DNA of 33,676 nt, from IMG/VR virus record IMGVR_UViG_2690315994_000029, positions 1 through 33,676 of that record. One strand, 5' to 3'. The stretch comes from a virus. Its lineage: Duplodnaviria; Heunggongvirae; Uroviricota; Caudoviricetes. The position numbers and the translations under genes were made by a program. Positions 271 through 31,899 of this stretch are shown piece by piece; the stretch's first letter is position 1; each line of letters opens with the position of its first letter. The notes under the pieces are model-generated. The model was given only the letters and a program-made list of their open reading frames with translations. It did not search any database and had not been told where the DNA came from.

Positions 271-475
271 TTACCGTTAAATCATTTTAAAATCAGTAAG
301 TTGTATCGAGTTTGTATGCTTTACTGTCATTAACTTACTGTATGTTGATCCAGTGTATTTAACCTTGATAAACTCAGTCCAGCAACACAAAACCGCAACA
401 CATTGCATTTTGTCCCGTAGAAAAGACTTGTATGTGTGAGCTTGTTTTCTGCGCCTACGCAGATAAGGATTGAGA

Positions 476-1873
476 ATGCCGCGCACTGTAACACATAATC
501 CGGATAGCCCCAATAATGACGATGTTTTAGCCGCATCTGAAAAATGGGACGCCTGTAAACCCCCCTATACCAGCGCACACATGAAAATCTGTGTTGCTGC
601 CGCCAAAATCATCCTCGCTGCTTCCGGCGTGGCTCGCCGTTCCAAATACGAAAAAGAGAACTATCTCCGTATCGATTTCAGCAAAGCCGGTAAGGTTACA
701 TTTTACGCCGAGTTTCCAAAAAAGATGGGCCTCAAGGGTAAAAAGCTCGGCGAGTGGCCGGAGCTCGCTATCCAGCTGGCGCGCGAAAAAGCGCTAGGTA
801 TGGCTGACTGTGGCTTGCGGGCAGAGTCAGTACATGCAGCGCTGGAAATGTACCGGGATGACCTCAAAGCCAAAGTCGCCCGGCAGAAGCTGAGCCCGGA
901 CAGTTTCACAACCTACGGGGTGCGTATCGACAGGATTAAAGCAACGTTCGGCGAGCGTGAGGTGTTCAGCGACGTAACATACAATCGGCTGGTGGAAGTG
1001 CTGGACGAGTGGATCGCCACTCGCTCGAACAATAACGCCCTGGAGTTGTTTGCCGAGCTCCGTCGGTTCTGGAAGTTCTGCGCACCTACTCTTTGCAACG
1101 GCCGCAATGTTGCCGCCAGTCTGCCAGATGATTATGTTTCCTCCCGCGTACAGAAACCTACCCCCACACGGCTTTTTACCGATATTGAATCAATCGCCCG
1201 ACTCTGGCTCAATGTTGCTGCCTGCACCTCTGTACACCAGAAGAATGCTGTTCGCTTCATGATCATCACTGGCGTTCGTCCGATTAATGTCCATAACCTG
1301 CGCTGGGACTACGTTCACGAGGAGGCTGGTGAAATTGTTTATCCGGAAGGGGTTATCGGCATGCGAGGGGCTATGAAAACACAAAAGGCTTTCCGCCTGC
1401 CGATAACGCCTGAGATCCGGCGGATTATCGACGAGCAGAAAGCCTGGCGTGATTCAGTTCCTGAGTGCAACAGGGATTATGTATTTTTGCAGCCACGTGA
1501 TCCAATGCAGTCATTTTCAAAACGATCACTGGATAAGCTGGTGAAAACATACAGCCCGGACGGGGCTGTAAAAGGAATAAAACATGATGGGACTGTTAAA
1601 GGGAAAGACGGTGCATTTAATACGATGTGCCGTAAATTCCTTAAGAGCAATGTTATTGCCTTGATGAAGGAAAGAGGCTATTCCCGATCAGACCGAAGGG
1701 AAATCAGCCTCCTTTGCCTTCACCACTCCAGCAAGTCAGATGACCCGATGGCAGAACATTACGACTTTTCTGATGAGATTTTACAGGAAGAGATTGCGTT
1801 AAAGCGCGAAGCTTTCGAGGCTCACGAGCGGAGCATACTTGCGCAGGTTGCATTGCTACGGCGGCGAGGTTAA
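476..1873 (+). CDS. int: phage tyrosine integrase (site-specific recombinase)
   Basis: ORF track 470-1873 begins at TTG; first ATG at 476 preceded by AAGGA (465-469). About 465 aa, at prophage edge next to host gene, divergent from an AlpA/Xis-like gene; C-terminal region has His/Arg/Tyr residues expected of the catalytic domain. Family not verified by search. Confidence 0.8.
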   Translation: MPRTVTHNPDSPNNDDVLAASEKWDACKPPYTSAHMKICVAAAKIILAASGVARRSKYEKENYLRIDFSKAGKVTFYAEFPKKMGLKGKKLGEWPELAIQLAREKALGMADCGLRAESVHAALEMYRDDLKAKVARQKLSPDSFTTYGVRIDRIKATFGEREVFSDVTYNRLVEVLDEWIATRSNNNALELFAELRRFWKFCAPTLCNGRNVAASLPDDYVSSRVQKPTPTRLFTDIESIARLWLNVAACTSVHQKNAVRFMIITGVRPINVHNLRWDYVHEEAGEIVYPEGVIGMRGAMKTQKAFRLPITPEIRRIIDEQKAWRDSVPECNRDYVFLQPRDPMQSFSKRSLDKLVKTYSPDGAVKGIKHDGTVKGKDGAFNTMCRKFLKSNVIALMKERGYSRSDRREISLLCLHHSSKSDDPMAEHYDFSDEILQEEIALKREAFEAHERSILAQVALLRRRG

Positions 1874-2070
1874 TACTGGCTGCGACACTTTTGAATAAAA
1901 GCGTCGACATTTCGGCGCTCATAACGAACTACTTTTGCACTGAAACGAATTGGTGCCAGGATAGCCCGATGACGATGCTTAATATTCCACTCACATAGCG
2001 TTTTCTGTGTAATACCTAACTTTTGGCATACTTCATCTGGGGTGAGTAAATCGTCGGGTTTCTCGCTCAT
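1870..2070 (-). CDS. AlpA/Xis-family helix-turn-helix protein (putative excisionase)
   Basis: 66 aa; LLTPDEVCQKLGITQKTLCEW resembles AlpA-type excisionase HTH; start ATG 2070-2068 overlaps helicase stop (ATGA); adjacent to int. Confidence 0.65.
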   Translation of the reverse strand: MSEKPDDLLTPDEVCQKLGITQKTLCEWNIKHRHRAILAPIRFSAKVVRYERRNVDAFIQKCRSQY

Positions 2071-3461
2071 GCTATACCTCTCTTTTTCATGGCATCGAGC
2101 AGGATGTCCTGCACTGTTCGTTTTGAGTTGCGCCGCTCCATCACCATTTCGTCCATAGTGTCGGCCGCAATAATGTGGTGAATAAATACCGGACGATTGT
2201 GTCCGGCCTGTATCTGCCTGGTGGGGCCGATACGTTCAATAATTTGCTGATACTGCTCCAGGTCCCACCAGTGTGAGAAAAATACCAGTATGTTTCCGCC
2301 GTCCTGCATGTTCAGACCGTGGCCCGCGCTGGCTGGGTGTGCAAAGAGAACAGGAATCTTTCCGGAATTCCAGTCGCGCAGTGTCTGTGGATCTTGGTCG
2401 AGGTGACGACCGCGAGGGAATGCTTTAAGCAAGCGTTCAAGATCGTGTTTCCAGTGATAAGCAACCAGCACAGGTGCGCCAGCTGCTTCGGTCAGTATGC
2501 TGTCCAGCGCCTGCAGTTTGGTGTCATGCAGTTCTGACCAACTTCCGGTGTCGTCTGTGTATACTGCGCCACTGGCGATTTGCAGACACTTCAGTGTCTT
2601 TGCCGCGGCGTTTGGTGCTTCGATGCCTTCGCCATTCAGCTCGAGGAACATTTCCTTTTCCATTTCACGATACTGCTGACGGGCCTTCGGCGGCATATCC
2701 ACGCGGATTACGTTATGGATGGGGTCTTTGATATCGAACCAGTCGGCCGCATCCAGCGATAGGGTCACATCGGCTAACGCTCGCTGTATTTCACCCTGTG
2801 AGTGAGCAAACGGCTCCAGTTTGGTCCAGCTCTGCCCCGGAAACTGCATCGAGTTGAACCAGCGTGAGGTAAACGCGCCGTAAGTGCGTCCGAGACGTTG
2901 CCCCAGGTCCACAAACCACGCTTGTCCCCACAAATCTACCAGGCCGTTCGGTGCTGGCGTACCGGTGAGATTTATCCAGCGCCGGACATACTTATGCGCC
3001 ACTTTGCCCAGCGCCGCCGCGCGCTTACCACCACCTCGCAGCCGGAAGGATTTTAGCCGGGTGCTTTCATCTGGAATGACAGTACCGAACGGCCATCGTT
3101 CTCCCAATTCCTCAACCAGCCAGACAAGGTTATCGTAGTTGATGGTGAACACGCTTGCGTTGCTGTTCGCCAGCGCTGCAGAGCGCGCTTTGGCGTTACC
3201 AACAATCGACTGCATCTCAATATTACGCAGATGCCCCCATTTAACAGCTTCATCAGGCCAGGTGCTTGCTGCAACGCGTAGCGGCGCGAGGACCAGCGCG
3301 GGGCGTGTTTCTGCTCCAGCCATGAAAAGATCTTCCAGCGTGGTGAGTGTCGCTACGGTTTTACCCATTCCCATACCTGCCCAGATGTTGCAGCGCATGA
3401 TGTCGATTTCGTGGTTGATAATGAGATCTTGGTAGGGGCGAGGGATAAAGTTTTGAGGCAT
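2067..3461 (-). CDS. superfamily-2 (SNF2/DEAD-like) DNA helicase
   Basis: 464 aa; Walker A GMGMGKT near N-terminus, DExx-like VIPDESTRLK, C-terminal helicase-like region; ATG at 3461-3459. Confidence 0.75.
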   Translation of the reverse strand: MPQNFIPRPYQDLIINHEIDIMRCNIWAGMGMGKTVATLTTLEDLFMAGAETRPALVLAPLRVAASTWPDEAVKWGHLRNIEMQSIVGNAKARSAALANSNASVFTINYDNLVWLVEELGERWPFGTVIPDESTRLKSFRLRGGGKRAAALGKVAHKYVRRWINLTGTPAPNGLVDLWGQAWFVDLGQRLGRTYGAFTSRWFNSMQFPGQSWTKLEPFAHSQGEIQRALADVTLSLDAADWFDIKDPIHNVIRVDMPPKARQQYREMEKEMFLELNGEGIEAPNAAAKTLKCLQIASGAVYTDDTGSWSELHDTKLQALDSILTEAAGAPVLVAYHWKHDLERLLKAFPRGRHLDQDPQTLRDWNSGKIPVLFAHPASAGHGLNMQDGGNILVFFSHWWDLEQYQQIIERIGPTRQIQAGHNRPVFIHHIIAADTMDEMVMERRNSKRTVQDILLDAMKKRGIA

Positions 3462-3571
3462 TATAATCTCGCAAATTTTTGCTAGTTAGAGGTCGCACCA
3501 GTTGGCCTGGCAATTTTTACTATTCACAGCGAAGGTAACCCACAGGGTTAAATGTAAGGATAAACAATAAA

Positions 3572-4501
3572 ATGAGTGAATTTGGTGGTCAGCAACCCGC
3601 ACCCCAACAAGTACTGGACTTAGGTGTTAGTACTGAGGGGGTTTTTAACGAAATAGAAATGGGGGTTCTTCAGAACGGGATCTCCTACCTTACGCAAAAT
3701 GGGCTGGCCAGGATTTGCGGGGTGCATCGCAGTAATATCGCGGATATTTCTCGAGAGTGGGAAGAGAGCTTCCGCCACGGAGTTTTCGCTCGAGGGCGTA
3801 TGGAGTTTATCAGCTCATATTTACAGCGTGAGCAATATAATGAGCCGACTCTTTATATCACAATCAACAAAGATGGGTCAGTCCATTATGCGTACCCAGA
3901 AGTAGTCTGTATGGCTATTCTGGAGTTCTACGCATTTGTATCTCAAAGTGCTGCAACTCCTACTGCGCTACAGTTTTTCCGCGAGCTATCCCGTGCGGGT
4001 ATGCGTGGTTACATCTATACAGCGCTTGGCTACATACCTGATGACCCTTGGCGTCATTACCACTCTCGTGTGTCAATCATGCATGGGGCAAACTCGGTTC
4101 CTGCTGGACACTTCATTGTATTCAATGAAATTGCCGGTTTAATGGTAGACCTCATCCATGCTGGATTAGCAGTAAACCAGTACACTGTACCGGATATCAG
4201 TGTGGGCCAGCACTGGGCTCGCTACTGGTCTTCTTCCAACTACGATGCGACGATTGGCCCAAGACAACGCTGCCAGCACTATTACCCTGAAGAATTCAAC
4301 CAATCCGCAAGTAATCCCCAAATGGTCTATGCATACCCTGATAATGCTTTAGCTGTATTCAGGCACTGGCTTCGTGCGGTTTATTTACCAACCAAATTCC
4401 CTAAATACCTTCTGAGTAAAGCAGGGCTATTGGCTGGCGGACAAACGGCGGCGTTGCAAATTATTGATAATTTTAATAATCGTGCATTACCTAACCCATA
4501 A
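3572..4501 (+). CDS. hypothetical protein with KilA-N/Bro-N-like N-terminal region; function unknown (candidate defence/exclusion gene)
   Basis: 309-aa ORF, ATG 3572 with TAAGGA 11 nt upstream; only plus-strand gene inside the minus-strand early operon; N-terminal segment NGISYLTQNGLARICGVHRSNIADISREW looks like a phage DNA-binding (KilA-N/Bro-N type) module; C-terminal part unrecognised. Confidence 0.7.
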   Translation: MSEFGGQQPAPQQVLDLGVSTEGVFNEIEMGVLQNGISYLTQNGLARICGVHRSNIADISREWEESFRHGVFARGRMEFISSYLQREQYNEPTLYITINKDGSVHYAYPEVVCMAILEFYAFVSQSAATPTALQFFRELSRAGMRGYIYTALGYIPDDPWRHYHSRVSIMHGANSVPAGHFIVFNEIAGLMVDLIHAGLAVNQYTVPDISVGQHWARYWSSSNYDATIGPRQRCQHYYPEEFNQSASNPQMVYAYPDNALAVFRHWLRAVYLPTKFPKYLLSKAGLLAGGQTAALQIIDNFNNRALPNP

Positions 4502-4503
4502 TA

Positions 4504-5517
4504 TCAACAGATGAGGTCGTATCCTGTGCATTCCATAAACGAGCGGATGAATGTTGCGGCAGCTGGTGCGACTATCGCGTTGCCGTAGGCGCGCAGTCGT
4601 CCCACTCTGGAGGTAATCCCATGAGCCAACGGGAATGTGCCGGATTCAACTGGCCGCCAGCGACCATCCCGGCAGAGGAGCCAGTCAGCATCATCCCAGC
4701 AGCTGTTAATCGTATTGGGCCGCCGAGGGTCGTTCCCCGTTTGGTATGATTGGCCGCTGCGCCCTCGCCACGAACTTGGTTGTTGTCGACCGTCGTCACT
4801 GTCGGCCATCCCGCTAATCTGGATAGCCCCGCTAAGGTTTCTAGACCGCGTTTTGTCTCCGGCTGTGGGTTTGTGTTGCAGGTTGGGGTGTACCACCCCG
4901 CCAGGTGAGCAAAATCCCGCAGGGAGCTGTGTAGCGTGTTGCCGGACGGTCGACGATCTCCAGACATCTTCCTCAATGCTATTGAGGCGCTTTCGCCACC
5001 GCTGTGGTCGCTCGCCGCTGGCGTCGGCCACCCAATACGCTCTATCTCGGATATGCGGGGCACCGACGCCCGCAGCCGGAAACGGGACAAGCCCAAAGGC
5101 GTAGTCCACTGCTTCCACGTCAGTTTGTACAAGATCGAACCAGGCATTGACTCCCGCAACCTGTTCGCCAAATACCAGCTCAGGGCGTCGCTCGCTGATG
5201 AGGTGGAATAGTGCTGGCCATAGGTGCCGCTCGTCATCAAACCCAGCGCCTTTACCAGCCGAGCTGAAAGGCTGGCACGGGCAACTTCCTGTCCAGACCG
5301 GTTTGTTATCCGGCCATCCGGCCAGACGCAGAGCATAAGACCAGACGCCGATCCCGGCGAAGAAATGGCACTGTGTGAATCCGCGCAAGTCGTCTGGTGC
5401 GACATCTTCGATACTCCTTTCATCAACTTCACCCGGGGCGATATGACCCGCAGCAATAAGGTTACGCAGCCATTGTGCTGCGTTAGGGTCTATTTCGTTG
5501 TAATAGGCTCCCCGCAC
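4504..5517 (-). CDS. DNA (cytosine-5)-methyltransferase
   Basis: Motifs in order: FFAGIGV (motif I), [11 protein letters not shown] (PCQ catalytic motif IV), FGEQV (ENV motif VI), AYGNAIVAP (motif X); apparent GTG start at 5517; no cognate nuclease recognisable. Confidence 0.9.
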
Positions 5518-5783
5518 AATATCCCCTCCAGATTTTTGCTATCCAGCACCACTACGGTAAAGCCCAGCGCGCGCAGTCGTCCGTGTTCACGCAGTTGGCC
5601 GGCGCGTGGTGGCTTGCCGGGTGCTTTACATTCAACGAAAACGATACGACCACCGGGTAGCAGAACAATGCGATCTGGTACAGAGCGGTGACCGGGAGAT
5701 ACAAACTTAAAGGCCACCCCGCCAGCTTTTTTCACTTCAGCGACGAGGTGCTTTTCGATAAGGCTTTCACGTTCATAGGCCAT
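5490..5783 (-). CDS. VRR-NUC domain nuclease
   Basis: IVFVECKAPGKPPRAGQLREHGRLRALGF matches VRR-NUC signature; start chosen at in-frame ATG 5783-5781 (track start 5810 would overlap the upstream gene by 38 bp). Confidence 0.7.
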   Translation of the reverse strand: MAYERESLIEKHLVAEVKKAGGVAFKFVSPGHRSVPDRIVLLPGGRIVFVECKAPGKPPRAGQLREHGRLRALGFTVVVLDSKNLEGILCGEPITTK

Positions 5784-6072
5784 CTGAATCCCACTCTTCA
5801 AAAAGCACATTCAATTCCAGTTTCTCTGCCAATGCGTTTTCTGCACGTGCGCCGGTAGAGTACTCCCACTCTTTGAGCATATAAATCGTATCGGCACAGC
5901 GAAGCATTGCGAGGCAGATGTCCATATACTGAGCCTGTGTCAAACCATCGGGTAAAGTTGCGGGGTTAAGCACAACATATCCCTTGTCCGTTAGCCTCTT
6001 TGCTGCGGAATGAAAGGCCGGGCGGTTAAATTGTTCGTAACCGCTCATAGGCCCGGCAACGTAAACGATCAT
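5773..6072 (-). CDS. DUF4406-like (nucleoside 2-deoxyribosyltransferase-like) protein
   Basis: 99 aa beginning MIVYVAGPMSGYEQFNRPAF, typical of this phage family by recollection; ATG 6072-6070. Confidence 0.55.
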   Translation of the reverse strand: MIVYVAGPMSGYEQFNRPAFHSAAKRLTDKGYVVLNPATLPDGLTQAQYMDICLAMLRCADTIYMLKEWEYSTGARAENALAEKLELNVLFEEWDSDGL

Positions 6073-6284
6073 TCTTCGACCGCCTTACGCTTTTCACGCA
6101 TATTCTGCATCAGGCAAAAATCAGATCTGCGTTCACTCCATTCCTGATTCAGTTCGTGATGTGATTCGCGGTTGGCTTTTGCCCAGACCTTCGCTGCCCG
6201 GTCATATTCGCCGGATTGTTCAAGTCGCAAAGCCTCCCTTGCAGCCCTGTAATAAAGTGGATTGTCCCGGTATTTAAATGACAT
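6069..6284 (-). CDS. ANR-family small regulator-like protein
   Basis: 71 aa, MSFKYRDNPLYYRAAREALRLEQSGEYDRAAKVW; ATG 6284-6282 with AAGGA upstream; ATGA overlap with the downstream gene. Confidence 0.5.
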   Translation of the reverse strand: MSFKYRDNPLYYRAAREALRLEQSGEYDRAAKVWAKANRESHHELNQEWSERRSDFCLMQNMREKRKAVEE

Positions 6285-6289
6285 AGGAG

Positions 6290-8353
6290 TTAATCCTTAC
6301 GGTAGTGGTACGCCTCAAAACCGCCAGCGTTCAGTGGGATATCGGGCGCCCATTCGGGGTTAGTGGAGAGAAGCGCGGAAAGCGCTTTATCGTTGAAATC
6401 TTCTGTGTCAGGTGCTTCGGTGATCACCTCGTCGTGTACCGTCAGCACAATGCTGTAACCGGCATCTTCGATAAGCGGCATGTTTCCGGCCAGAACGTCG
6501 CGGGCGGCCGCCTGGGTGACGTTCTCTACCAGCTTTCCGCCGTAGGTTTTGAGTCGTTGCCATTTACGCGAATAAGAGTTAACACCCATATAGGTGATAT
6601 CCCCTTTTTCGATAACCGGAGACGGGTAGCATACAGCGCGTCCAGATGGCAGCTGTATGCGCAGCCACGCGCCATCACGTCGGATTTTAAGATAGCCGCA
6701 ATACAATGTTTTTTGCGGTGTGGCGATTGCTGTGCGGACGGTGCACTCCAGTTCGTACCAGAAATCACAGGTCGCGGGATGCGCCCGGCGCCAGAGACGT
6801 TTAAGTGAGTCGCAGGCGATAAATACCCGTTCAGAAAGCCCGTAGGTCGATTTACGTTTAACCGATTCGTCGTACCAGCTTTTCGCCTCGCGGATAACAT
6901 CGCGGGGAATGTTTGGCAGTGCGGCGTTCGCCAGCCCGTCGAGATCGAGACCGTAAACCAGAGCAAAAGTGATGAAAGCCGATACACCTCCTCCATAACC
7001 CAGACCGAGTTCCATGACTTTACCGATCTGACGCATGTGTTTATCAACATCATCTGGTGCAATATCGAAAGCTTTTGCATACGCCAGTTTATATAAGTCC
7101 GGACCCGTTCCGGCGTCGTACTCTCTGAATGCATTCAGTTTCCATTCTTCTCCCGCCAGCCATGCCAGCATACGGCCTTCAATGTTCGACAAGTCACTTA
7201 CCACCAGCTTTTTGCCTGTTGGCGCGATAATGCAGCCACGTAACGCTGAACTGGTTAGTTCCATGATATTGTCAAACAGCAGGTCTGCACATCCGGCTTT
7301 CAGTGCTTCGATGCCTTCGTCTATTTGTTCCTGTTTTAGTGAAGGGCGGGGAAGGTTCTGGGGCTGGAATAGCCGTCCGGCCCAACGACCGGTACGTGAC
7401 GCCCCGCAGAACTGTAGCGTACCGCGTAAGCGCCCGTCGTGGCTTACGCCTTTCATCAGTGCCTTGTATTTACTGGTGCTGGTAGTACTGGCCTGCAGGC
7501 GGATAGCCAGCAGTTCTTTCACGGCAGATGGTAAATCGGGGTCGGCAATACGACGTTCCAGAGTACTGCGTTGCATGTCTGGTAGCTCCACACCGTAGGA
7601 TTCAACAATGTGCTTAATCAACGCGTCTCGTTGTGTGGCTGCCTGCACTTCGCCATCAGTCATTTCCTGTGTACGCTTTGCCAGGCGCTTTTGTTCCTGG
7701 TCTACCGCGTCGATCGCAGCGCGTGCGAGTTCCACGTCCATGCAGACGCCCCGGTCATTGATCTGCTGATCACGATGCCAGAGCGCCAGTTCTGTCCCCT
7801 GATAATTCCACTTCGGCAGACGTTTATAGACTTCGCGCATTGCCTCGATATCCAGTCCGGCGTAAGCAACAAAGCGCCGCCATTCTTCCGGGTGGGTTTT
7901 GCTGGTGGCCCGGCGCAGTTTGCTGTTTTTCGGGCGTGGCTTACAGAACAGCTGGATCAGCGCTTTACCTTCTTTGTCCTTCGCTTTGTCTTGCGGGACG
8001 CCTAGTACTTCGCAGAGTTCCCCCAGAGCCCCCGGGAGACCGTGCGCCAGCGCCTGCACCATCGTGTCGCGCCAACGTTCGACTGGCGGTGCCAGTCGCG
8101 GCATTGCATAACGCAGGACGGTGCGGTCGAAGTGAGAGTTATGAAAATAAAGCAGGGTTTCAGGGGCTGCGATTGCTTCGTATAAGCCGTGTGGAATACC
8201 ACCACCGGCAGTGATATCCCATACGTTTACTGGCCCGTCGTTGATAGCCCATGCGAACAGCATCACTTCAACGCCTTCGGCATACGCATGGGTACCGTTC
8301 GTAATAGGGATTTCGCAATAGGTTTCCAGGTCGCCCCATAGTATATTGGACAT
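6290..8353 (-). CDS. family-A DNA polymerase (Pol I-like, phage replicative)
   Basis: 687 aa; Pol A motif A-like [14 protein letters not shown], motif B-like [16 protein letters not shown], motif C VHDE; N-terminal exonuclease-like region. Confidence 0.85.
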
Positions 8354-8399
8354 GTGTTTACCTTGGTTTTTATTCTATTAACTGATTAAAAGATTAATT

Positions 8400-9029
8400 A
8401 TGCATATGATCCAATACTTGATTGACCATACAGAGCATCTGGAGAAAATAGCTGGATATATTTTTTCATGTTTGATTGTTATGGGAGTCTGGATAAGAAA
8501 GATCATTTTTAATTATAAGTATAAAGAGCCTAAATATGTCAAGAAGTTAATTTTATATTTAGTTAAGTATGAACGTTATCTGGATAAGGAGGATAAGAGT
8601 GCCATAGAAAAAAGAATAAATGATAAAATTATTCGTGATGCGCTGAAATTGCAATCTTCTTATAACCGAAGTGATGTTATTTACATTTGCAATAGATTAG
8701 AAAAAAGACAGTATATAAATCAGGTGATTAAGCTTCAGAATTATATAGAGAAAGATAACGGAGTGTTTTTCATCAATGTTAATTTTTCAGGTTTTTTATT
8801 TATTATTAGTCGTCTGTTTTCCTTTCTGTGTTTTGTGCTGTTTATCCTTTTTTCTATTATCTGCATTATTTCCATAGGGCAAAATGAAGGCCTTTTAAAT
8901 TATCTTGTGTATATGGTTATGACAATAGTTTTAGAGACTGTTGGTTTTTGGATGTATGATACTTTCCCGTCTAAGAAGAAGATCTGTGAACTAAATAAAG
9001 AATTGAGGAAGATTAAGATTCCTGAGTGA
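8400..9029 (+). CDS. hypothetical multi-pass membrane protein, AT-rich moron
   Basis: 209-aa ORF with GC visibly far below flanks (roughly 30 percent vs about 50 percent, by eye); hydrophobic segments IAGYIFSCLIVMGVWI, FSGFLFIISRLFSFLCFVLFILFSIICIISI, LLNYLVYMVMTIVLETVGFWMY; opposite strand to flanking replication genes. Confidence 0.7.
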   Translation: MHMIQYLIDHTEHLEKIAGYIFSCLIVMGVWIRKIIFNYKYKEPKYVKKLILYLVKYERYLDKEDKSAIEKRINDKIIRDALKLQSSYNRSDVIYICNRLEKRQYINQVIKLQNYIEKDNGVFFINVNFSGFLFIISRLFSFLCFVLFILFSIICIISIGQNEGLLNYLVYMVMTIVLETVGFWMYDTFPSKKKICELNKELRKIKIPE

Positions 9030-9047
9030 TTATACGCCTAATCAGCA

Positions 9048-9066
9048 GCCCGGTATTTAACCGGGC
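9048..9066. other. 7-bp GC-rich hairpin between convergent genes
   Basis: GCCCGGT-attta-ACCGGGC inverted repeat; no U-tract on either side, so terminator function uncertain. Confidence 0.4.
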
Positions 9067-9081
9067 GTCTATGAAGTAGGG

Positions 9082-9630
9082 TTAAATCAGTGCTTCAGCA
9101 TCAGCACCTTCGCTGATATCGTCGAAATCGTCAGCGCTTGCCACTCCGCCGCCAGCGAATGCATCGCCGTCTCGCAGGAACTGGACTCCGCCGAGTGAGG
9201 CATTAATGCGTTTACCGAAATTATTGTCCTGTGCCCAGATATCGATAACGGCGTTTACATAGCACCCTGCATAGGGACGTCCATCAGCCTGAATAAGTGG
9301 CGAACGATCGCGATCAAGAACAGCTGGGCGCGCTTTGTTAGCAGCATTCAGGAAGAAATTGCCGGGGAAGCCTTCATACTCTGCTTTTTCATCACCATCA
9401 TGCAGGCACAGATTGAGTTTTTTCTCCAGTTGGTTATAAATGGGCTCCCACTTCTCTCCCCATTTTTCCTTCGCTACCTGCTTCATAGCTTTACGGATTT
9501 CTTCCAGTTGTGGGTGTTTGGGTGACATTAAAAATACTGCGGAGAAACGTGGATCGCCTTCGCCGTTTACAGTTTTAGCTTCAAACAGAGACGGGAAGGC
9601 CAGACGAACATTGTTCAGCTTCAGTTTCAT
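9082..9630 (-). CDS. DUF2815-family phage protein (putative ssDNA-binding)
   Basis: 182 aa beginning MKLKLNNVRLAFPSLFEAK; AAGGA RBS; acidic C-terminal tail. Confidence 0.7.
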   Translation of the reverse strand: MKLKLNNVRLAFPSLFEAKTVNGEGDPRFSAVFLMSPKHPQLEEIRKAMKQVAKEKWGEKWEPIYNQLEKKLNLCLHDGDEKAEYEGFPGNFFLNAANKARPAVLDRDRSPLIQADGRPYAGCYVNAVIDIWAQDNNFGKRINASLGGVQFLRDGDAFAGGGVASADDFDDISEGADAEALI

Positions 9631-9645
9631 GGGTATTTCCTTAAA

Positions 9646-10947
9646 TCAGATGAGGTCTGCGGTTAGCGTATCGTCGGATACGTCGTCGAAATCATTTACA
9701 GGGTTGATATTGAGTGCGGGGCGTGGGTCTGACTCGGGAACGATGGTGGGTTTACCATCAGCTCGTGTTATCAGTGCCTCGACTTTTGACCAACGGCGCG
9801 GACTGGCCTTTTTGATAAGTTTTTCGGCTTTTGTGGGGCTAATAAGTTTAAAGTCGAATACTTCTTCAGTTTTGTACCTGAACTGGTCCTTCAGAAGTGC
9901 GCGAGCTGCCTCTTCATCACTCCAGGCCCGGTTACCTTGTTTTCCTGTTACCAGTTTAAACCCCGGTACCGGATGTCCGGCATTGAGTTCATTGTGAACC
10001 CGGTCTCGTACTGCCTTTAGCCAGGATTCAATAAAGTCGGCCTGGCTATAGATCTCCGCAAGCTGCTCAATGGTTAACAGAGGTACACGTGCGCTGGCAT
10101 TGGAGATTATTTCGCTGACAGGCTTTGTCAGATCTTCAAAATCGCTGGCCGCTGTTTGTAAATGCTGCATTTTCTGGGCAGTGCAAATAGCTTTTGCTTT
10201 ACAGAAGCGGCACTGTTTTTCTCCAGGTATGAAGTTTTCCAGCGGTAGTGTCTCAATGCCTTCGCATTCAGCAATATTGAGAACAAGGATCGCACTGGTT
10301 GCGGCCTCCAGTGCCCGTTCACCGAAAGACTGAAGTTCCTGTACGGTTAACGACCATTCTGAAACGTGGTTGAGCCTTGGCTGGTGAATAAATAATCTTA
10401 CAGTCTCAAAGTCATACAGCATGCTGAATTGTTCGAGCGCACCCAGAGCATACAGTTGTAGTTGCTCATTTTGTTCTGCATCAATGCGGACGCCTTTGCC
10501 ATATTTCAGGTCGTGGATTTGTAATTCGCTACCAGCAATGATTATGCCGTCGGCAGTTCCGAAAGATTCTTCCACACCCGTTATATGTGAGAAATCAACA
10601 CGTTGTTCAACCAATAGTTCATTATTCTGTGCAAGAGTCCAGACCGTATCAACATACCGGCCAACGGCTTCGACCATTTCATCATCCACCTGTGGGCCAG
10701 ATGTATCATTAGGATTTTCGCGAAGGGGGTATGAGCCGAGAAACATAGAAACATTGCATCCGGCGTAGTGTTCCGGGTAGCTTTGCCTGTTTCGTAGAAC
10801 TTTTTCAGCAAGCGCGTGCGCTGCAGTGCCCTCGATTGCAAAAGTTGTTTCTTTATCCGGTTGTGTGGCCTCCAGCGCCAGACTTCCTGGGCAGCGCATC
10901 CATCGATGCGCTGATGATGGAGAAAGTTGTGCATGAACGTCTGGCAT
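9646..10947 (-). CDS. DUF2800-family PD-(D/E)XK (Cas4/RecB-like) nuclease
   Basis: 433 aa; N-terminal [15 protein letters not shown] plus C-terminal [10 protein letters not shown] Cys cluster, consistent with an Fe-S Cas4-like exonuclease. Confidence 0.75.
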
Positions 10948-10949
10948 GA

Positions 10950-11852
10950 TTAACCCTCCAGTGCTTTTTCAGCCAGGGTGATTACTTCAGCGAGATTTTC
11001 ATCCGTTACTTCACCAAGTTTCCTGGCTCCCTGTTTTTCCAGAATTGCAATAGCTTCTGCCCGGTAACCCCCTTTTGCTAACTGGAGGATCAACCCTTCA
11101 GCTTGTTTGCGTAGTGCCGCGAAATCAATTGTATGGTCATCTTTGGCGTCATGATTCTGGCTGGAATTTGCTGCGTCTCTGCGTGCAAATTCTTCTTGCA
11201 GCTGAAGGTACTCAACACGGTTGATCTCGATATGGCCTTTTTTCAGCATCTCGTTCAACTTGCGTAAGGTGTGGAGTTCACTGGCTGCTGTGCCGGATAC
11301 ATTTTTGACGTAAAACGGCCCCGTGCGTTCTCCATCTTTGTTACTGGCCTTTTTCGGCTTAACTTCATCACGCCCATCCGCAGGTGCATCAAGTAGCTGC
11401 TCGGCAAAAACACGTCGCTCGCCGATGGTTGGCAGGTCGTCCCAGAACTTAAGGATGTTACGGGACAGGTCCAGGAGAGCAGGTTTAAGCAGCGCCCTGG
11501 CTCGTTTGACGCCCTGCAATGCGCTGTCGAGAGCATCAATCTGAACTACTCGTTTATCGCCTTCAGCATCACGGTAGGCAACAGCACGTTGCAGCATGTC
11601 TTCTGTGATAGGGGTGGCTACCGGGTAGAAACCAGCCAGTGCGATAACGTCGCTGAACTCCAGATCATCCAGTGTCATTGCCGCTGACATATTTTCAGTT
11701 TCAGTTGCTGTATCCCGACATTCCTGCACTCGTGAAATCGTGTCAGGATGCATAACAATGCCTGATGCCATTGTGCGGATAAGACGTTCAAGCAGCGCAT
11801 TATGTTGTGCCAGAAGTTGATTATTAAGTTCGAGACTGGTTTCTAAACTCAT
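10950..11852 (-). CDS. hypothetical phage protein
   Basis: 300-aa ORF tightly packed in the operon (ATGA overlap with the next gene); no motif recognised. Confidence 0.6.
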
Positions 11853-12019
11853 ACTGTGGTCCTCGCTACAAGGAGAATGAAAGTGATGATCAGACCGAGC
11901 GCAGTGGCAACGGCCAGACCGGTCATCAAATCGAAGTTTTTACGGCGATAACGGAGAACATCGCGCCCCGTCAGTCGATGGAGGTATTCAGGTTTCATCG
12001 GTTGTATTCCTTTTTTCAT
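11849..12019 (-). CDS. small membrane protein (first gene of early-left operon)
   Basis: 56 aa from ATG 12019 (track start 12031 is GTG); C-terminal hydrophobic helix LAVATALGLIITFILLVA. Confidence 0.45.
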   Translation of the reverse strand: MKKGIQPMKPEYLHRLTGRDVLRYRRKNFDLMTGLAVATALGLIITFILLVARTTV

Positions 12020-13165: not shown

Positions 13166-13840
13166 TTAGTACATACGTAGCGCGGATTTGGCGATCCCCG
13201 CCACGTAATGGATTTTTTCAATGTTTTCGCGTGGTACTCTGACTGGTGGATGATCTTCATTTACAGACATTAGATGGAACAGGCCATCGCGTTCGAACAA
13301 GAAGGTTTTAACCATGACCTCACCTTCCCGGGTAACCACAAGTACTTCATCACCAGGAGTGTAGTCGTGGTTGGGTTCGACGATTACGAACTCCCCCTCT
13401 TTGATTCTAGGCATCATTGAATCACCAACACATTTCAGGGCGTATGCATCTTCATCCTTTGTCGGCCAGTATATGAAACCATCACTGCTACCTACTGAAT
13501 ATTGGGTGTCGCTCCAAAGTCCTCCAACGCCTAGCTGAGTGTTTCCCAAAACAGGTACTTTATTAAACCTAAGAGAAATATACGTTTTTATACCTGTCGC
13601 GTCCTCTTTCTCCATTTCTTGAAGGCTCCTTTCTGCCAAGTCTATTGGTGACACGTGGAAGTAGTCGGCGATCTGCTTTAACGTTGCGTATTTCGGATCT
13701 TTCACCTCTCCTGATACCAGCCTGTGTAGCGTTGGTTGGTTCAGCTGTAACCGACGTGCCAGCTCAGTTATCGAGCTTATCTTGGCTTTGTCCATCAGGT
13801 ACTTGATGTTTTGAGAAAGGATATCGGTAGTATCAATCAT
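13166..13840 (-). CDS. cI: CI-like prophage repressor (HTH + S24 LexA-like peptidase domain)
   Basis: 224 aa; N-terminal HTH (ITELARRLQLNQPTLHRLVSG); C-terminal CVGDSMMPRI catalytic Ser motif and downstream Lys (VMVKTF); divergent from a cro-like gene. Confidence 0.85.
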   Translation of the reverse strand: MIDTTDILSQNIKYLMDKAKISSITELARRLQLNQPTLHRLVSGEVKDPKYATLKQIADYFHVSPIDLAERSLQEMEKEDATGIKTYISLRFNKVPVLGNTQLGVGGLWSDTQYSVGSSDGFIYWPTKDEDAYALKCVGDSMMPRIKEGEFVIVEPNHDYTPGDEVLVVTREGEVMVKTFLFERDGLFHLMSVNEDHPPVRVPRENIEKIHYVAGIAKSALRMY

Positions 13841-20544: not shown

Positions 20545-20545
20545 N

Positions 20546-25664: not shown

Positions 25665-26120
25665 CTATCCGTGGAAAATATTTGCATCCAAATCATCTAT
25701 GAGATTAGACCTAACTGATTCATAATTTTTCCCATATGCGGCCCCTTTACCTGAATGGGTTACATGCCCAATAGGACCGTACAGAAGTATAGAGATTGTG
25801 AATGATATTTCATCAGAAATGCCGCCTATCTTTTGAAACCAAAGTTCCGGGTTACGATTCCGGTCGGTTACAACGTCAAATACAAGCGCGATAAGATCTG
25901 GGAGATAGTACATGTTAAATCCGCCTTTTGGGGTCAACTCGAGATTCAACAGGGCTTTGATGGAGGGATAATTGCTTACATCATCCTGAATGCCATTCTT
26001 AAGAGTTGTAAACACAAAGTTCAGCATTTCAGCAACTTTATCTTTGTTTGGTTCTACTCCATTTCTGAAGGACCGCTCTCCAGATTCATATTTTTCAACA
26101 CAAAAATCTAATAAATTCAT
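25665..26120 (-). CDS. hypothetical soluble protein, low-GC moron between lysis and terminase genes
   Basis: About 151 aa (ATG 26120 with GGGGA RBS; track start 26126); opposite strand to the late operon; GC visibly lower than flanks; no motif recognised. Confidence 0.6.
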   Translation of the reverse strand: MNLLDFCVEKYESGERSFRNGVEPNKDKVAEMLNFVFTTLKNGIQDDVSNYPSIKALLNLELTPKGGFNMYYLPDLIALVFDVVTDRNRNPELWFQKIGGISDEISFTISILLYGPIGHVTHSGKGAAYGKNYESVRSNLIDDLDANIFHG

Positions 26121-26142
26121 TATCATTCCCCGAGGTAACTAA

Positions 26143-26694
26143 ATGGCGCTCACCGACAAACAAGAGATGTTCTGTCGCGAGTACCTCATCGATTTAAACG
26201 CCACGCAAGCGGCTATTCGGGCGGGGTACAGCGCTAAGACAGCTAACCGTACCGCATCCGAAAACCTGTCAAAACCTGACATCAAGTTAAGAATCGCCGA
26301 ACTGAAAGCGCAACGCAATGATCTTGTTGGTATTAATGCAGAATATGTACTTAATCGCCTTATTGAAATCGACCAGATGGATGTGCTTGACATTCTCCTG
26401 CAAAACGGTGAGCTAAAACCCATTAAAGACTGGCCTAAGGTATGGCGCACAACGCTATCAGGAATGGATGTCGTGGAGATGGTATCCGCAGATAGCGCCG
26501 CACTTCTGAAGAAAATCAAATGGCCTGATAAGGTTAAAAACCTTGAGTTGCTTGGGCGCCATGTTTCTGTTCAGGCGTTTAAAGACAACGTCAAAAATGA
26601 AGTGACTGGTGCTGACGGAGGACCAGTCAGAACAGAAATTACCAACTTAACGCCGGAGCAGGCTGCAGAAGCGTATAAAAAAATGATGGGCTAA
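26143..26694 (+). CDS. terminase small subunit (second allele, mosaic)
   Basis: 183 aa; N-terminal two thirds diverged from the 19293 copy, C-terminal ~60 aa near-identical. Confidence 0.7.
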
Positions 26695-26696
26695 GT

Positions 26697-27562
26697 ATGC
26701 CGTTACCATTTCACTTCGATTTTAAACATCCTGATTACCAGATGGTTTTTGAATGGCGGATGGAACGCTTACAGCGCATTCGCCAGAACCCTGAAATATT
26801 GCCTGCACTAAAACAGTTTTACCGAACCAATCCGGCTCAGTTCATCATCGACTGGGGCATGACAACGGACCCGCGTAATATTGATTATGGCCTGCCGGTG
26901 ACCATTCCGTTTTTACTCTTCCCTAAGCAGGAGGAGTGGATCCACTGGATTATGGAACGCTGGAGCAATCGGGAGAATGGTATTACCGAAAAATCCCGTG
27001 AAATGGGGCTCAGTTGGACCGCGATCGGACTGGCCTGCTCGCTTTGTCTCTTCAACAAAGAAATGGTTATCGGTTTCGGCTCCCGTAAAGAGGAATACGT
27101 CGACAGCACTGGTGACCCGAAAGCATTGTTCTGGAAGGCACGCAAGTTCGTGGAAACGCTACCTGTAGAGTTTCGCGGTTCGTGGAGTGAGAAGAAGCAC
27201 GCGCCATATATGCGTGTTGAGTTTCCTGAAACTGGTGCCGTTATCAAAGGCGAGGCTGGCGATAATATTGGTCGTGGTGACCGTACCACGCTTTATCTGG
27301 TTGATGAGGCTGCATTCCTTCAGCGTCCTCTGCTGATTGATGCGGCGTTGTCACAAACGACGCGTTGCCGTATTGACCTGAGTTCAGTTAACGGCATGGC
27401 GAACCCGTTCGCTCAGAAGCGTCATGGCGGGAAGATACCGGTATTCACATTCCACTGGCGGGATGATCCTCGCAAGGATGAAGAGTGGTATCGCAGGGAA
27501 TGCGAGAAAATCGATAATCCGGTGGTGGTGGCACAGGAACTAGATCTGAACTACAGCGCATC
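26697..27562 (+). CDS. terminase large subunit, 3'-truncated at contig join
   Basis: Same N-terminal sequence as 19868 with a few substitutions; cut by 'n' at 27563. Confidence 0.7.
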
Positions 27563-27563
27563 N

Positions 27564-29018
27564 CTAATAAATTCATTATCATTCCCCGAGGTAACTAAAT
27601 GGCGCTCACCGACAAACAAGAGATGTTCTGTCGCGAGTACCTCATCGATTTAAACGCCACGCAAGCGGCTATTCGGGCGGGGTACAGCGCTAAGACAGCT
27701 AACCGTACCGCATCCGAAAACCTGTCAAAACCTGACATCAAGTTAAGAATCGCCGAACTGAAAGCGCAACGCAATGATCTTGTTGGTATTAATGCAGAAT
27801 ATGTACTTAATCGCCTTATTGAAATCGACCAGATGGATGTGCTTGACATTCTCCTGCAAAACGGTGAGCTAAAACCCATTAAAGACTGGCCTAAGGTATG
27901 GCGCACAACGCTATCAGGAATGGATGTCGTGGAGATGGTATCCGCAGATAGCGCCGCACTTCTGAAGAAAATCAAATGGCCTGATAAGGTTAAAAACCTT
28001 GAGTTGCTTGGGCGCCATGTTTCTGTTCAGGCGTTTAAAGACAACGTCAAAAATGAAGTGACTGGTGCTGACGGAGGACCAGTCAGAACAGAAATTACCA
28101 ACTTAACGCCGGAGCAGGCTGCAGAAGCGTATAAAAAAATGATGGGCTAAGTATGCCGTTACCATTTCACTTCGATTTTAAACATCCTGATTACCAGATG
28201 GTTTTTGAATGGCGGATGGAACGCTTACAGCGCATTCGCCAGAACCCTGAAATATTGCCTGCACTAAAACAGTTTTACCGAACCAATCCGGCTCAGTTCA
28301 TCATCGACTGGGGCATGACAACGGACCCGCGTAATATTGATTATGGCCTGCCGGTGACCATTCCGTTTTTACTCTTCCCTAAGCAGGAGGAGTGGATCCA
28401 CTGGATTATGGAACGCTGGAGCAATCGGGAGAATGGTATTACCGAAAAATCCCGTGAAATGGGGCTCAGTTGGACCGCGATCGGACTGGCCTGCTCGCTT
28501 TGTCTCTTCAACAAAGAAATGGTTATCGGTTTCGGCTCCCGTAAAGAGGAATACGTCGACAGCACCGGTGACCCGAAAGCATTGTTCTGGAAGGCGCGCA
28601 AGTTCGTGGAAACACTACCTGTAGAGTTTCGCGGTTCGTGGAGCGAGAAGAAGCACGCGCCATATATGCGTGTTGAGTTTCCTGAAACTGGTGCCGTTAT
28701 CAAAGGCGAGGCTGGCGATAATATTGGTCGTGGTGACCGTACCACGCTTTATCTGGTTGATGAGGCTGCATTCCTTCAGCGTCCTCTGCTGATTGATGCG
28801 GCGTTGTCACAAACGACGCGTTGCCGTATCGACCTGAGTTCAGTTAACGGCATGGCTAACCCGTTCGCTCAGAAGCGTCATGGCGGGAAGATACCGGTAT
28901 TCACATTCCACTGGCGGGATGATCCTCGCAAGGATGAAGAGTGGTATCGCAGGGAATGCGAGAAAATCGATAATCCGGTGGTGGTGGCACAGGAACTTGA
29001 TCTGAACTACAGCGCATC
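27564..29018. repeat. redundant copy of 26108-27562 (overlapping contig joined by 'n')
   Basis: Sequence after 'n' 27563 restarts at CTAATAAATTCATTATCATTCC and repeats the small and large terminase 5' parts. Confidence 0.85.
27599..28150 (+). CDS. terminase small subunit (redundant copy)
   Basis: Identical protein to 26143-26694. Confidence 0.7.
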
Positions 29019-29237
29019 AGCGGAAGGCGTTCTGATTCCATCCGAATGGGTACAGGCTGCCGTTGATGCGCATATCAAACTGGGTATCCAGCCAACAGGC
29101 AAACGACTTGGCGCGATGGATGTCGCCGACGAAGGCAGGGACAAAAATGCCTTTTCCACCCGTCATGGCTTCCTCCTGGAAAATGTGCGGGAATGGTCCG
29201 GTGTGGGCAGCGACATTTATCAGTCCGTCGAGAAGGT
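28153..29237 (+). CDS. terminase large subunit, partial (to 'n' at 29238)
   Basis: 361 codons through Walker motifs and into the nuclease-like domain ([16 protein letters not shown]); the 738-aa track ORF is an artefact fusion across the 'n'. Confidence 0.7.
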
Positions 29238-29238
29238 N

Positions 29239-29830
29239 GAGAAGAAGCACGCGCCATATATGCGTGTTGAGTTTCCTGAAACTGGTGCCGTTATCAAAGG
29301 CGAGGCTGGCGATAATATTGGTCGTGGTGACCGTACCACGCTTTATCTGGTTGATGAGGCTGCATTCCTTCAGCGTCCTCTGCTGATTGATGCGGCGTTG
29401 TCACAAACGACGCGTTGCCGTATTGACCTGAGTTCAGTTAACGGCATGGCGAACCCGTTCGCTCAGAAGCGTCATGGCGGGAAGATACCGGTATTCACAT
29501 TCCACTGGCGGGATGATCCTCGCAAGGATGAAGAGTGGTATCGCAGGGAATGCGAGAAAATCGATAATCCGGTGGTGGTGGCACAGGAACTTGATCTGAA
29601 CTACAGCGCATCAGCGGAAGGCGTTCTGATTCCATCCGAATGGGTACAGGCTGCCGTTGATGCGCATATCAAACTGGGTATCCAGCCAACAGGCAAACGA
29701 CTTGGCGCGATGGATGTCGCCGACGAGGGCAGGGACAAAAATGCCTTTTCCACCCGTCATGGCTTCCTCCTGGAGAATGTGCGGGAATGGTCCGGTGTGG
29801 GCAGCGACATTTATCAGTCCGTCGAGAAGG
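29239..29830. repeat. redundant copy of about 28646-29237
   Basis: Sequence after 'n' 29238 restarts inside the large terminase at GAGAAGAAGCACGCGCC. Confidence 0.8.
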
Positions 29831-30369
29831 TCTTCGGCTTTTGCGAACAGGACGATCTTGAAGAGTTTCGCTTTGACGAGGACGGGCTGGGCGCTGGCGT
29901 TCGCGGCGATGCGCGCGCTATCAACGAACTGCGTAACGTTGCGCGCCGACCGTCAATACTCGCCACACCGTTTCGAGGTAGTGGCGCGGTATTTGATCCG
30001 GATGATGAAGCTGTTCGCGGGGACAACGGGCAAGCCGCACGTCTGAACAAGGACTTCTTCGCTAACGCCAAAGCCCAGAGCTGGTGGCGGTTACGTAAAC
30101 TTTTTCAGAATACCTGGCGCGCCGTGGTTGAAGGTATGGCTTACAACCCGGACGAAATCATCTCAATCAGCAGTAGCATGGCACTCAAAGATAAACTCAT
30201 CATCGAGCTTTCGCAGCCGACCTATTCCATTAATGGTGTGGGAAAAATCGTTATTGATAAACAGCCTGATGGAACCCGATCGCCAAACCTTGCCGACTCG
30301 GTGATGATCAACTATGCCCCAATGAATTCAGCCCTGAACATCTGGGAGCTGCTAGGGAGACAGGCCTGA
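29239..30369 (+). CDS. terminase large subunit, 3' fragment
   Basis: In-frame continuation ending ...[10 protein letters not shown]; stop TGA 30367-30369 overlaps the next ATG. Confidence 0.65.
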
Positions 30370-30420
30370 TGGCACGAAACAAACAAGCCCTGCGGCGAAC
30401 TGCGCAGGCNNNNNNNNNNN

Positions 30421-31395
30421 CAGTTAACGGCATGGCGAACCCGTTCGCTCAGAAGCGTCATGGCGGGAAGATACCGGTATTCACATTCCACTGGCGGGAT
30501 GATCCTCGCAAGGATGAAGAGTGGTATCGCAGGGAATGCGAGAAAATCGATAATCCGGTGGTGGTGGCACAGGAACTAGATCTGAACTACAGCGCATCAG
30601 CGGAAGGCGTCCTGATTCCATCCGAATGGGTACAGGCTGCCGTTGATGCGCATATCAAACTGGGTATCCAGCCAACAGGCAAACGACTTGGCGCGATGGA
30701 TGTCGCCGACGAAGGCAGGGACAAAAATGCCTTTTCCACCCGTCATGGCTTCCTCCTGGAAAATGTGCGGGAATGGTCCGGTGTGGGCAGCGACATTTAT
30801 CAGTCCGTCGAGAAGGTTTTCGGCTTTTGCGAACAGGACAACCTCGAAGAGTTTCGCTTTGACGAGGACGGGCTGGGCGCTGGCGTTCGCGGCGATGCAC
30901 GCGCTATCAACGAACTGCGTAACGCTGCGCGTCGACCGTCAATACTTGCCACACCGTTTCGAGGTAGTGGCGCGGTATTTGATCCGGATGATGAAGCTGT
31001 TCGCGGGGACAACGGGCAAGCAGCACGTCTGAACAAGGACTTCTTCGCTAACGCCAAAGCCCAGAGCTGGTGGCGGTTACGTAAACTTTTTCAGAATACC
31101 TGGCGCGCCGTGGTTGAAGGTATGGCTTACAACCCGGACGAAATCATCTCAATCAGCAGTAGCATGGCACTCAAAGATAAACTCATCATCGAGCTTTCGC
31201 AGCCGACCTATTCCATTAATGGTGTGGGAAAAATCGTTATTGATAAACAGCCTGATGGAACCCGATCGCCAAACCTTGCCGACTCGGTGATGATCAACTA
31301 TGCCCCAATGAATTCAGCCCTGAACATCTGGGAGCTGCTAGGGAGACAGGCCTGATGGCACGAAACAAACAAGCCCTGCGGCGAACTGCGCAGGC
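30421..31395. repeat. redundant copy of about 29435-30409 (variant allele)
   Basis: After n-run 30410-30420 the sequence restarts at CAGTTAACGGCATGGCG; differs at a few positions (e.g. EQDNLEEF vs [14 protein letters not shown] vs RNVARR). Confidence 0.8.
30423..31355 (+). CDS. terminase large subunit, 3' fragment (variant allele)
   Basis: Frame from VNGMANPF to GRQA stop. Confidence 0.6.
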
Positions 31396-31888
31396 TACAG
31401 CTGATGGTTATGAGAATTTTATTGCCCGCGTAGGGATGCAGACACCTAACCAGCACTCAGCATCCACCTACCGGGCTAATTTCACCAGTCGTAACCGCAT
31501 GCTGGTGGAATGGTCCTATCGTTCATCCTGGATCATCGGCGAAGCAGTCGATGCTATCCCGGATGATATGACCCGCAAAGGCATTCGCATCACTTCGGAA
31601 ATTGATGCAAAAGATCGTGGCATTCTCGAATCACAACTGGATGAGTTGCAAATCTGGGATGCGCTGAATGACGTGCTGAAATGGTCGCGCCTCTACGGCG
31701 GCGCGGTGGGTTTCATCATGATTGAGGGGCAGGCACCAATGACCCCGCTGCGACCCGAAACCATCGGTAAGGGCAAGTTTAAGGGGATTCTCCCGCTCGA
31801 CCGCTGGATGATCGACCCGGTACTGACCCGCCGCATTAAAGATATGGGGCCGGACCTGGGTAAACCTGAGTTTTACGATGTGGTGACC
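31355..31888 (+). CDS. putative portal protein, 5' fragment
   Basis: ATG 31355 overlaps terminase stop (ATGA-type); 178 codons then n-run; portal assignment by position only. Confidence 0.5.
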
Positions 31889-31899
31889 NNNNNNNNNNN

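Follow-up and report, generated by a model that had tools for sequence, protein, structure and literature searches.

Genomic context of the 309-aa gene

We analysed a 33,676-nt stretch of viral DNA (IMG/VR record IMGVR_UViG_2690315994_000029, positions 1 to 33,676; this whole stretch is hereafter called the window), in which a plus-strand open reading frame (ORF) of 309 amino acids (aa), here named bstA, lies between a SNF2-type helicase gene and a C5 cytosine methyltransferase gene, both on the minus strand. The window begins in yfhL and then runs into prophage, and the host element is an Escherichia coli prophage integrated beside yfhL. Its genes follow the order integrase, HTH_17, SNF2, bstA, methyltransferase, VRR-NUC, DUF4406, a small regulator, PolA, DUF2815, DUF2800, a cI-like repressor and a VapE-type primase (Table 1). 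Terminase genes are also present in the window, so the gene is carried by a prophage, as are members of the BstA family. From the evidence presented below, we consider it highly probable that this ORF encodes a BstA-family abortive-infection (Abi) protein, borne as a moron by the E. coli prophage and with a defence phenotype predicted by homology.

An earlier reading of this DNA (the original prediction) had described the ORF at 3572-4501, its stop-to-stop junction of 2 bp with the methyltransferase gene, and an upstream gap of 110 bp with its own ribosome-binding site. Direct reading of the coordinates agreed on each point: the TAA stop of bstA occupies 4499-4501 and the methyltransferase stop 4504-4506 on the minus strand, with 2 bp between them, and the gap at 3462-3571 contains the motif AAGGA at 3556-3560. 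The 2056-bp region shown here is present with 99.3-99.9% identity in 15 of the 5426 complete E. coli genomes, including enterotoxigenic E. coli (ETEC) H10407 and O103:H2 12009. The nearest isolated phages are vB_EcoM-611R5, 689R2 and 606R2, which show 96.9% identity across 74% of positions 2067-12000.

The ORF encodes a full-length BstA-family protein

The 309-aa protein was matched by the PADLOC BstA model (PDLC02356) with an E-value of 2.2e-110, the match covering residues 10-303 and model positions 4-289 of 292, and by PHROG 6287, annotated as "BstA abortive infection system, replication inhibitor" (E = 7e-98). A tblastn search against phage genomes gave 38% identity to the characterised founder of the family, BstA of Salmonella phage BTP1, over residues 19-308 (94% query coverage, E = 6e-54), and the best phage match, in Pseudomonas phage PseuP_222, was 50% identical. 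Searching a large protein collection returned 329 homologues, with PF26567 on all 120 that were listed. Some homologues are labelled "BstA-like C-terminal domain-containing protein" by their sources, and WP_001288450.1, which is 100% identical by tblastn, is so named in one recent RefSeq annotation. Scans with Pfam and NCBIfam assigned no family to the ORF, PF26567 apparently not being among the models scanned, and no PDB sequence was matched in a profile search. In an alignment with BTP1 BstA and 17 other homologues, invariant residues occur in both halves of the protein, and all of them are kept in the window protein. Moreover, since the ratio of nonsynonymous to synonymous polymorphism (pN/pS) is 0.14 against a 97%-identical copy in the related locus L054, bstA is under purifying selection.

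By these sequence comparisons, the ORF is a clear full-length member of the BstA family. The original prediction had offered two defence readings of the gene, and the first of them, a BstA-type Abi protein, is strongly supported by the PADLOC and PHROG matches and by the 38% identity to BTP1. The "hypothetical protein" of the 15 complete E. coli genomes can thus now be assigned as a putative BstA defence gene. The label "PI-PLC domain-containing protein", given in one genome by the Prokaryotic Genome Annotation Pipeline, was backed by no fold or hidden Markov model (HMM) result and was rejected.

Table 1 Features of the window discussed in the text
Feature	Positions	Strand	Remarks
Integrase	470-1873		
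HTH_17 excisionase-like gene	1870-2070		
SNF2-type helicase gene	2067-3461	-	Start at 3461 bounds the 110-bp gap
Variable cassette (moron slot), SNF2 to methyltransferase	3444-4516	.	Includes the first SNF2 codons and the last methyltransferase codons
Intergenic gap	3462-3571		110 bp, GC 0.38; bstA promoter expected here, none identified
Candidate aba	3537-3601	+	Direct repeats AACCCACA (3537-3544) and AACCCGCA (3594-3601), straddling ATG 3572
Shine-Dalgarno-like AAGGA	3556-3560	+	11 nt before ATG; TAAGGA in the second bstA allele
bstA coding sequence	3572-4501	+	309 aa plus TAA stop; ATG 3572 is the sole in-frame start
N-terminal domain	3620-4027	+	About residues 17-152; putative DNA-binding, KilA-N-like at fold level only
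C-terminal BstA domain	4037-4486	+	About residues 156-305; putative effector domain of unknown fold
C5 cytosine methyltransferase	4504-5517	-	337 aa; PF00145 and phrog_363; neighbour of bstA, outside the BstA system
Family-A DNA polymerase (PolA)	6290-8353		
Second plus-strand moron	8400-9029	+	209 aa, GC 0.30, between PolA and DUF2815; RefSeq-annotated
cI-like HTH/S24 repressor	13166-13840		9.6 kb from bstA

Domain architecture and predicted fold

An AlphaFold2 model built from 66 sequences (mean predicted local distance difference test score 85.7) shows a disordered tail at residues 1-15 followed by two folded units with a break near residues 153-160. The N-terminal domain consists of beta-hairpins and helices, and the C-terminal domain is mainly helical with two short hairpins. 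The window protein thus has the two-domain plan of BstA, that is, a length of about 300 aa and a boundary near residue 155. Fold searches with the C-terminal domain gave no nuclease fold.

The N-terminus had been described in the original prediction as KilA-N/Bro-N-like. The HMMs of KilA-N (PF04383) and Bro-N (PF02498) gave no match at E<=1 to the window protein, nor any at E<=5 to 19 diverse BstA proteins including that of BTP1; the sole Pfam match of the window protein was Phage_CII (E = 0.015, below the cut-off). A Foldseek search against viral models gave a best E-value of 1.4e-3, its weak matches being enriched in antirepressor, KilA-N and Bro proteins, and a weak likeness in fold was seen between the N-terminal domain and the DNA-binding domains of the antirepressor, KilA-N, Bro and APSES types. 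The description is accordingly not borne out by the Pfam models; going by the predicted structure, the N-terminus would be "KilA-N-like" in a loose, remote sense only. Owen et al. applied the KilA-N label remotely, from HHpred (PMC8585504).

bstA occupies an exchangeable slot of the prophage

E. coli 21KM1392 carries the same prophage at the same yfhL site. Homology between it and the window is lost at about 3444 and regained at about 4516, and because these breaks fall inside the codons of the flanking genes, bstA lies in an exchangeable cassette. In 21KM1392, the slot holds a plus-strand gene of 106 aa with a 4-bp overlap, and in other relatives it holds a second bstA allele or a minus-strand gene of 305 aa. 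The synteny comparison proposed with the original prediction, as a means to see whether bstA is an insertion, thus identifies the bstA segment as a replaceable cassette that is absent in 21KM1392. The slot also accounts for the tight convergent junction, because its right boundary lies inside the last methyltransferase codons. Slot genes elsewhere are equally tight; in contig L058, for example, bstA overlaps VRR-NUC by 12 bp and the methyltransferase is absent.

The second bstA allele is found in nine IMG/VR contigs (L055-L063) of the same prophage family, in which SNF2 is 79-96% and PolA 71-98% identical. It shares with the window allele the SNF2-side slot, the orientation, the ribosome-binding site and an upstream GTA(A/G)CCC(A/T)CAGGGT block, but differs in that its protein is 64-65% identical, that it abuts VRR-NUC and that its upstream repeat copy is AGCCCTCA. 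Two genes past bstA in L058, after VRR-NUC, a plus-strand gene at 5702-6727 encodes a HATPase_c protein with a weak PADLOC match to DrmA (E = 3.5e-9).

The state of the surrounding genes varies among the carriers. In the same prophage of ETEC H10407 (L001; NC_017633.1, 2981000-3001055), SNF2 has an internal stop and PolA a frameshift, and the methyltransferase gene of strain EL361 (L003) is frameshifted; both strains have an intact bstA. These two cases are consistent with a defence gene that outlives its prophage and is independent of the methyltransferase.

The moron status of bstA bears on whether the protein could instead regulate the life cycle of its own prophage, as a KilA-N/antirepressor-type anti-repressor or replication regulator with no part in defence. 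The weak fold similarities of the N-terminal domain noted above and the location of bstA within the replication module would fit such a role. Nevertheless, the homology to demonstrated Abi effectors is full-length and includes the C-terminal domain (PMC8585504); the gene is dispensable, being absent from vB_EcoM-611R5, 689R2 and 606R2 and from 21 E. coli prophages; and its GC content (0.47, vs 0.55 for SNF2 and 0.59 for the methyltransferase gene) is below that of its flanks, as expected for a moron. We therefore regard a regulatory role as quite improbable.

The adjacent methyltransferase is an unrelated neighbour

The gene facing bstA was called a C5 methyltransferase in the original prediction, rightly so: it matches PF00145 (E = 9e-12) and phrog_363 (E = 3e-90), and PADLOC methyltransferase models also match. 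The PF00145 match is confined to residues 76-171, and a NEID-type motif, YYNEID (about residues 5-10), precedes the FxGxG motif, which reads FFAGIG (about residues 52-57); possibly the N-terminus is permuted or divergent, in an arrangement typical of phrog_363. The GTG start of the gene overlaps the end of VRR-NUC by 28 nt.

A convergent pair with stops 2 bp apart, one partner being a bona fide C5 methyltransferase, led to the second reading in the original prediction, in which the two genes form a Type II restriction-modification pair: the methyltransferase would protect the DNA of the host and prophage, and the ORF would be the nuclease that cuts unmodified incoming DNA. The comparison of genomes contradicts this reading, since the two genes assort independently. 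Of 36 matching E. coli genomes, 21 possess the methyltransferase (about 97% identical) but no bstA, and in 21KM1392 the 106-aa gene replaces bstA beside it. Conversely, in the nine contigs L055-L063, the 64-65% identical bstA lies against VRR-NUC with no methyltransferase, and in L054 bstA is 97% identical but the methyltransferase merely 77%. The corresponding slot of vB_EcoM-611R5 has neither gene. Across the family, PF00145 is the downstream neighbour in only one of 85 dereplicated BstA loci, namely the window, and, as noted above, the C-terminal domain has no nuclease fold. Furthermore, three BstA homologues defend when expressed alone, with no methyltransferase, in LT2 and MG1655 (PMC8585504). 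Taken together, these data make a restriction-modification pair extremely improbable. The window pair resembles Type II restriction-modification systems in being a tightly packed convergent pair containing a C5 methyltransferase, but differs from them in that it is not co-inherited and has no nuclease fold, and in that BstA members act without a methyltransferase. Judged by synteny, the methyltransferase behaves as an orphan phage methyltransferase, and it is an unrelated neighbour of bstA.

A direct repeat spans the 5' end of bstA in many members of the family

In BTP1, the aba element is a segment of 63 bp, of which 34 bp are the beginning of bstA and 29 bp precede the gene; CCCGCC direct repeats with a spacing of 56 bp form its ends on the two sides of the start codon, and a G-to-T substitution in one repeat or the other abolishes it (PMC8585504). 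Each tested BstA homologue has its own cognate aba (PMC8585504). Owen et al. 2021 mention direct repeats for no phage other than BTP1 (PMC8585504), and our literature search found no later mechanistic or structural work on BstA among the papers it covered.

We looked for an equivalent element in the family. In each of the five homologues borne by phages, the start codon is spanned by an exact direct repeat with a spacing of 56-57 bp. A further 123 loci were fetched and anchored on the invariant Met30 codon, and 89 dereplicated loci were counted. Exact repeats of at least 6 nt were found at an offset of 57 in 44 of the 89 loci and at an offset of 56 in 8, compared with a background of about 3 per offset; 50 of the 89 loci have a repeat at one or other offset. 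When the proteins were clustered at 70% identity, the repeat was present in 22 of 42 representatives (other pairs of adjacent offsets: mean 2.6, maximum 10). In 23 of the 50 repeat-bearing loci, every in-frame start that could be used falls downstream of the upstream copy; as this copy is non-coding there, the signal is one of DNA. In homologues with a long N-terminus, both copies are coding (SPAT...19 aa...SPAT in P0060). The words themselves vary from lineage to lineage, 55 distinct ones being counted, many with a C-rich core such as GGCC(A/G)CC; a long exact example is TAACTCCGGCCACCCC in L016, and the two copies often differ by A vs G. An enrichment of repeats at an offset of 27 was traced to a coding GIE...GIE motif and was discarded as a DNA element. 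Were such a pair the family-wide form of aba, as in the tentative proposal made below, this would suggest that BstA reads two phased half-sites. The comparison of loci also supplies a sequence rule for where the cognate aba should lie, namely a 56-57 bp repeat across the bstA 5' end, and with it the way in which aba DNA neutralises BstA should be more accessible to experiment in a large number of homologues.

In the window, the corresponding pair consists of AACCCACA and AACCCGCA, which lie 57 bp apart from start to start and match at 7 of 8 positions (consensus AACCCRCA). AACCCACA precedes the invariant Met30 codon (window 3659) by 122 nt, and both this position and the spacing equal the family mode. 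AACCCGCA lies within CCCGCACCCC, an exact word that is repeated in L022, and it encodes residues 8-10, inside the disordered tail predicted by AlphaFold2. Of 5000 shuffles, 106 gave a repeat score at least as high, as did 23 of 894 genomic control positions, corresponding to p ~0.02-0.03 given the family prior. Because the match is 7/8, the segment at 3537-3601 is a candidate only, and on these sequence features we give it about an even chance of being an aba.

Position, transcription and points weighing against a functional system

The five phage homologues examined all have cI upstream: in four it is the adjacent gene, and in PseuP_222 a single gene separates the two. The commonest upstream neighbours across the BstA family are S24 or HTH repressors; among 84 loci, an S24 peptidase is the neighbour in 18 and SNF2 in 5. 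An IS1595-type transposase is found upstream in 9 of the 84 loci, and a P63C-domain protein in 4. The window therefore places BstA outside the cI-adjacent hotspot stressed by Owen et al., in a variable slot that belongs to the replication module of prophages of a PolA/SNF2-type family.

Several observations weigh against a working BstA defence gene at this locus. bstA is not downstream of the repressor, which is the typical although not obligatory position of BstA, and its upstream neighbour is SNF2 on the opposite strand. No convincing plus-strand sigma-70 promoter was recognised in the 110-bp gap by scan, by eye or by conservation between the two alleles, and no terminator-like site follows bstA on the plus strand before 5733. 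The window repeat, at 7/8 only, ranks fifth among offsets when taken by itself, and it has no exact repeat of at least 6 nt, unlike 50 of the 89 loci; the clade more than 60% identical to the window has weak repeats as well, with a longest exact match of 3-5 nt. Some bstA copies reside in decaying prophages, since SNF2 and PolA of H10407 are pseudogenised. Finally, the window allele differs from BstA-Ec, the E. coli homologue studied by Owen et al. 2021, whose gene has 897 nt (298 aa) vs 309 aa here, and its defence function is a prediction from homology.

The unrecognised promoter and terminator, the degenerate aba-like repeats and the decay of some host prophages would all be compatible with an inactive passenger, that is, a BstA homologue that is unexpressed or has lost its function in a non-canonical position. 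Such a passenger would not be expected, however, to keep an intact ORF with a pN/pS of 0.14 and all family-invariant residues, or to be maintained as two diverged alleles (64-65% identity) in one slot across related prophages, and we judge it very unlikely. Overall, bstA appears, from its sequence, to be an ordinary BstA defence gene in an unusual position.

A terminator-like hairpin is present in the gap at 3490-3508. The gap also contains a palindrome, TAACCC-ACA-GGGTTA, at 3536-3550, which overlaps the upstream repeat copy, a second palindrome, GCAAATTTTTGC, at 3471-3482, which adjoins the SNF2 start, and an imperfect 18-nt direct repeat (3474-3491 and 3512-3529). The two palindromes and the 18-nt repeat may be regulatory sites.

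According to the original prediction, the bstA and methyltransferase transcripts must overlap. An overlap is plausible because no plus-strand terminator-like site occurs before 5733, but its necessity was not borne out. In the other direction, bstA lies antisense between the methyltransferase and SNF2 genes with no terminator, and for this reason transcription of the early operon has to pass through about 1 kb of antisense bstA before it arrives at SNF2. It is a matter of speculation that such antisense crossing could lower bstA expression on induction. This leads to a tentative joint proposal, which we think doubtful when both of its parts are taken together: that aba is, family-wide, a pair of lineage-specific words of 6-16 nt, mostly C-rich, 56-57 bp apart, with the first lying 112-135 nt before Met30, whether coding or not; and that in the SNF2-slot clade the degenerate repeat is partly replaced by silencing of bstA through convergent transcription on induction.

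Other features of the prophage

bstA had been considered the only plus-strand gene in the minus-strand block; this was incorrect, as ORF 8400-9029 on the plus strand is also located there. Its protein has no match in Pfam or PADLOC. In E. coli 21KM1392, the slot of this ORF is occupied by a minus-strand SIR2-family gene that matches the PADLOC candidate system PDC-S25 (E = 5e-157). vB_EcoM-611R5 has a 630-nt plus-strand hypothetical gene at the matching position and a TIR-like gene in a different slot. The other slots of this prophage family thus hold SIR2 (PDC-S25) and TIR-like candidate defence genes.

The terminase region (26108-33367) contains tandem duplications. The small terminase gene occurs twice in identical form (26143-26694 and 27599-28150), the large-terminase copies are truncated as well as full, and repeat units of 1456, 1479 and 986 bp abut runs of N. 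Such runs are located at 30410-30420 and 31889-31899, and single Ns at 20545, 27563 and 29238. These duplications look artefactual, as if produced when a draft genome was assembled or scaffolded, and not biological.

Proposed mechanism and comparison with known systems

By homology with the three proteins tested (PMC8585504), a lysogen of this prophage would make BstA. Upon infection by a heterologous phage, BstA would go to the replicating phage DNA and block its replication, and the infected cell would die without releasing progeny. The prophage's own lytic replication would be spared through cognate aba DNA overlapping the bstA 5' end, for which the candidate here is the AACCCRCA pair, 57 bp apart, at 3537-3601.

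The window protein resembles BTP1 BstA in plan: both domains are homologous, the lengths are 309 and 307 aa, both genes are prophage-borne, and both have an AAGGA ribosome-binding site. The BTP1 aba and the window candidate both have C-rich repeats flanking the start codon, with a spacing of 56 vs 57 bp and the words CCCGCC vs CCCRCA; the window repeat, unlike that of BTP1, is imperfect (7/8). The two genes also differ in their setting, since in BTP1 cI immediately precedes bstA, which is followed by a Rho-independent terminator, whereas the window copy is antisense in a replication operon and no terminator was found for it. BstA-Ec (E. coli NCTC10963) and BstA-Kp (K. pneumoniae 52.145), which are about 40% identical to BTP1 BstA and still defend (PMC8585504), belong to the same family as the window protein, BstA-Ec being a different allele set apart by its 897-nt gene length. 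Lambda RexAB and the other morons of the cI-N region share with the window gene a prophage abortive-infection function, predicted in the case of the window, in a mosaic hotspot (PMC8585504). In contrast, they have no sequence relation to it and occupy another hotspot, the window slot lying in the replication module of a PolA/SNF2/VapE-type prophage.

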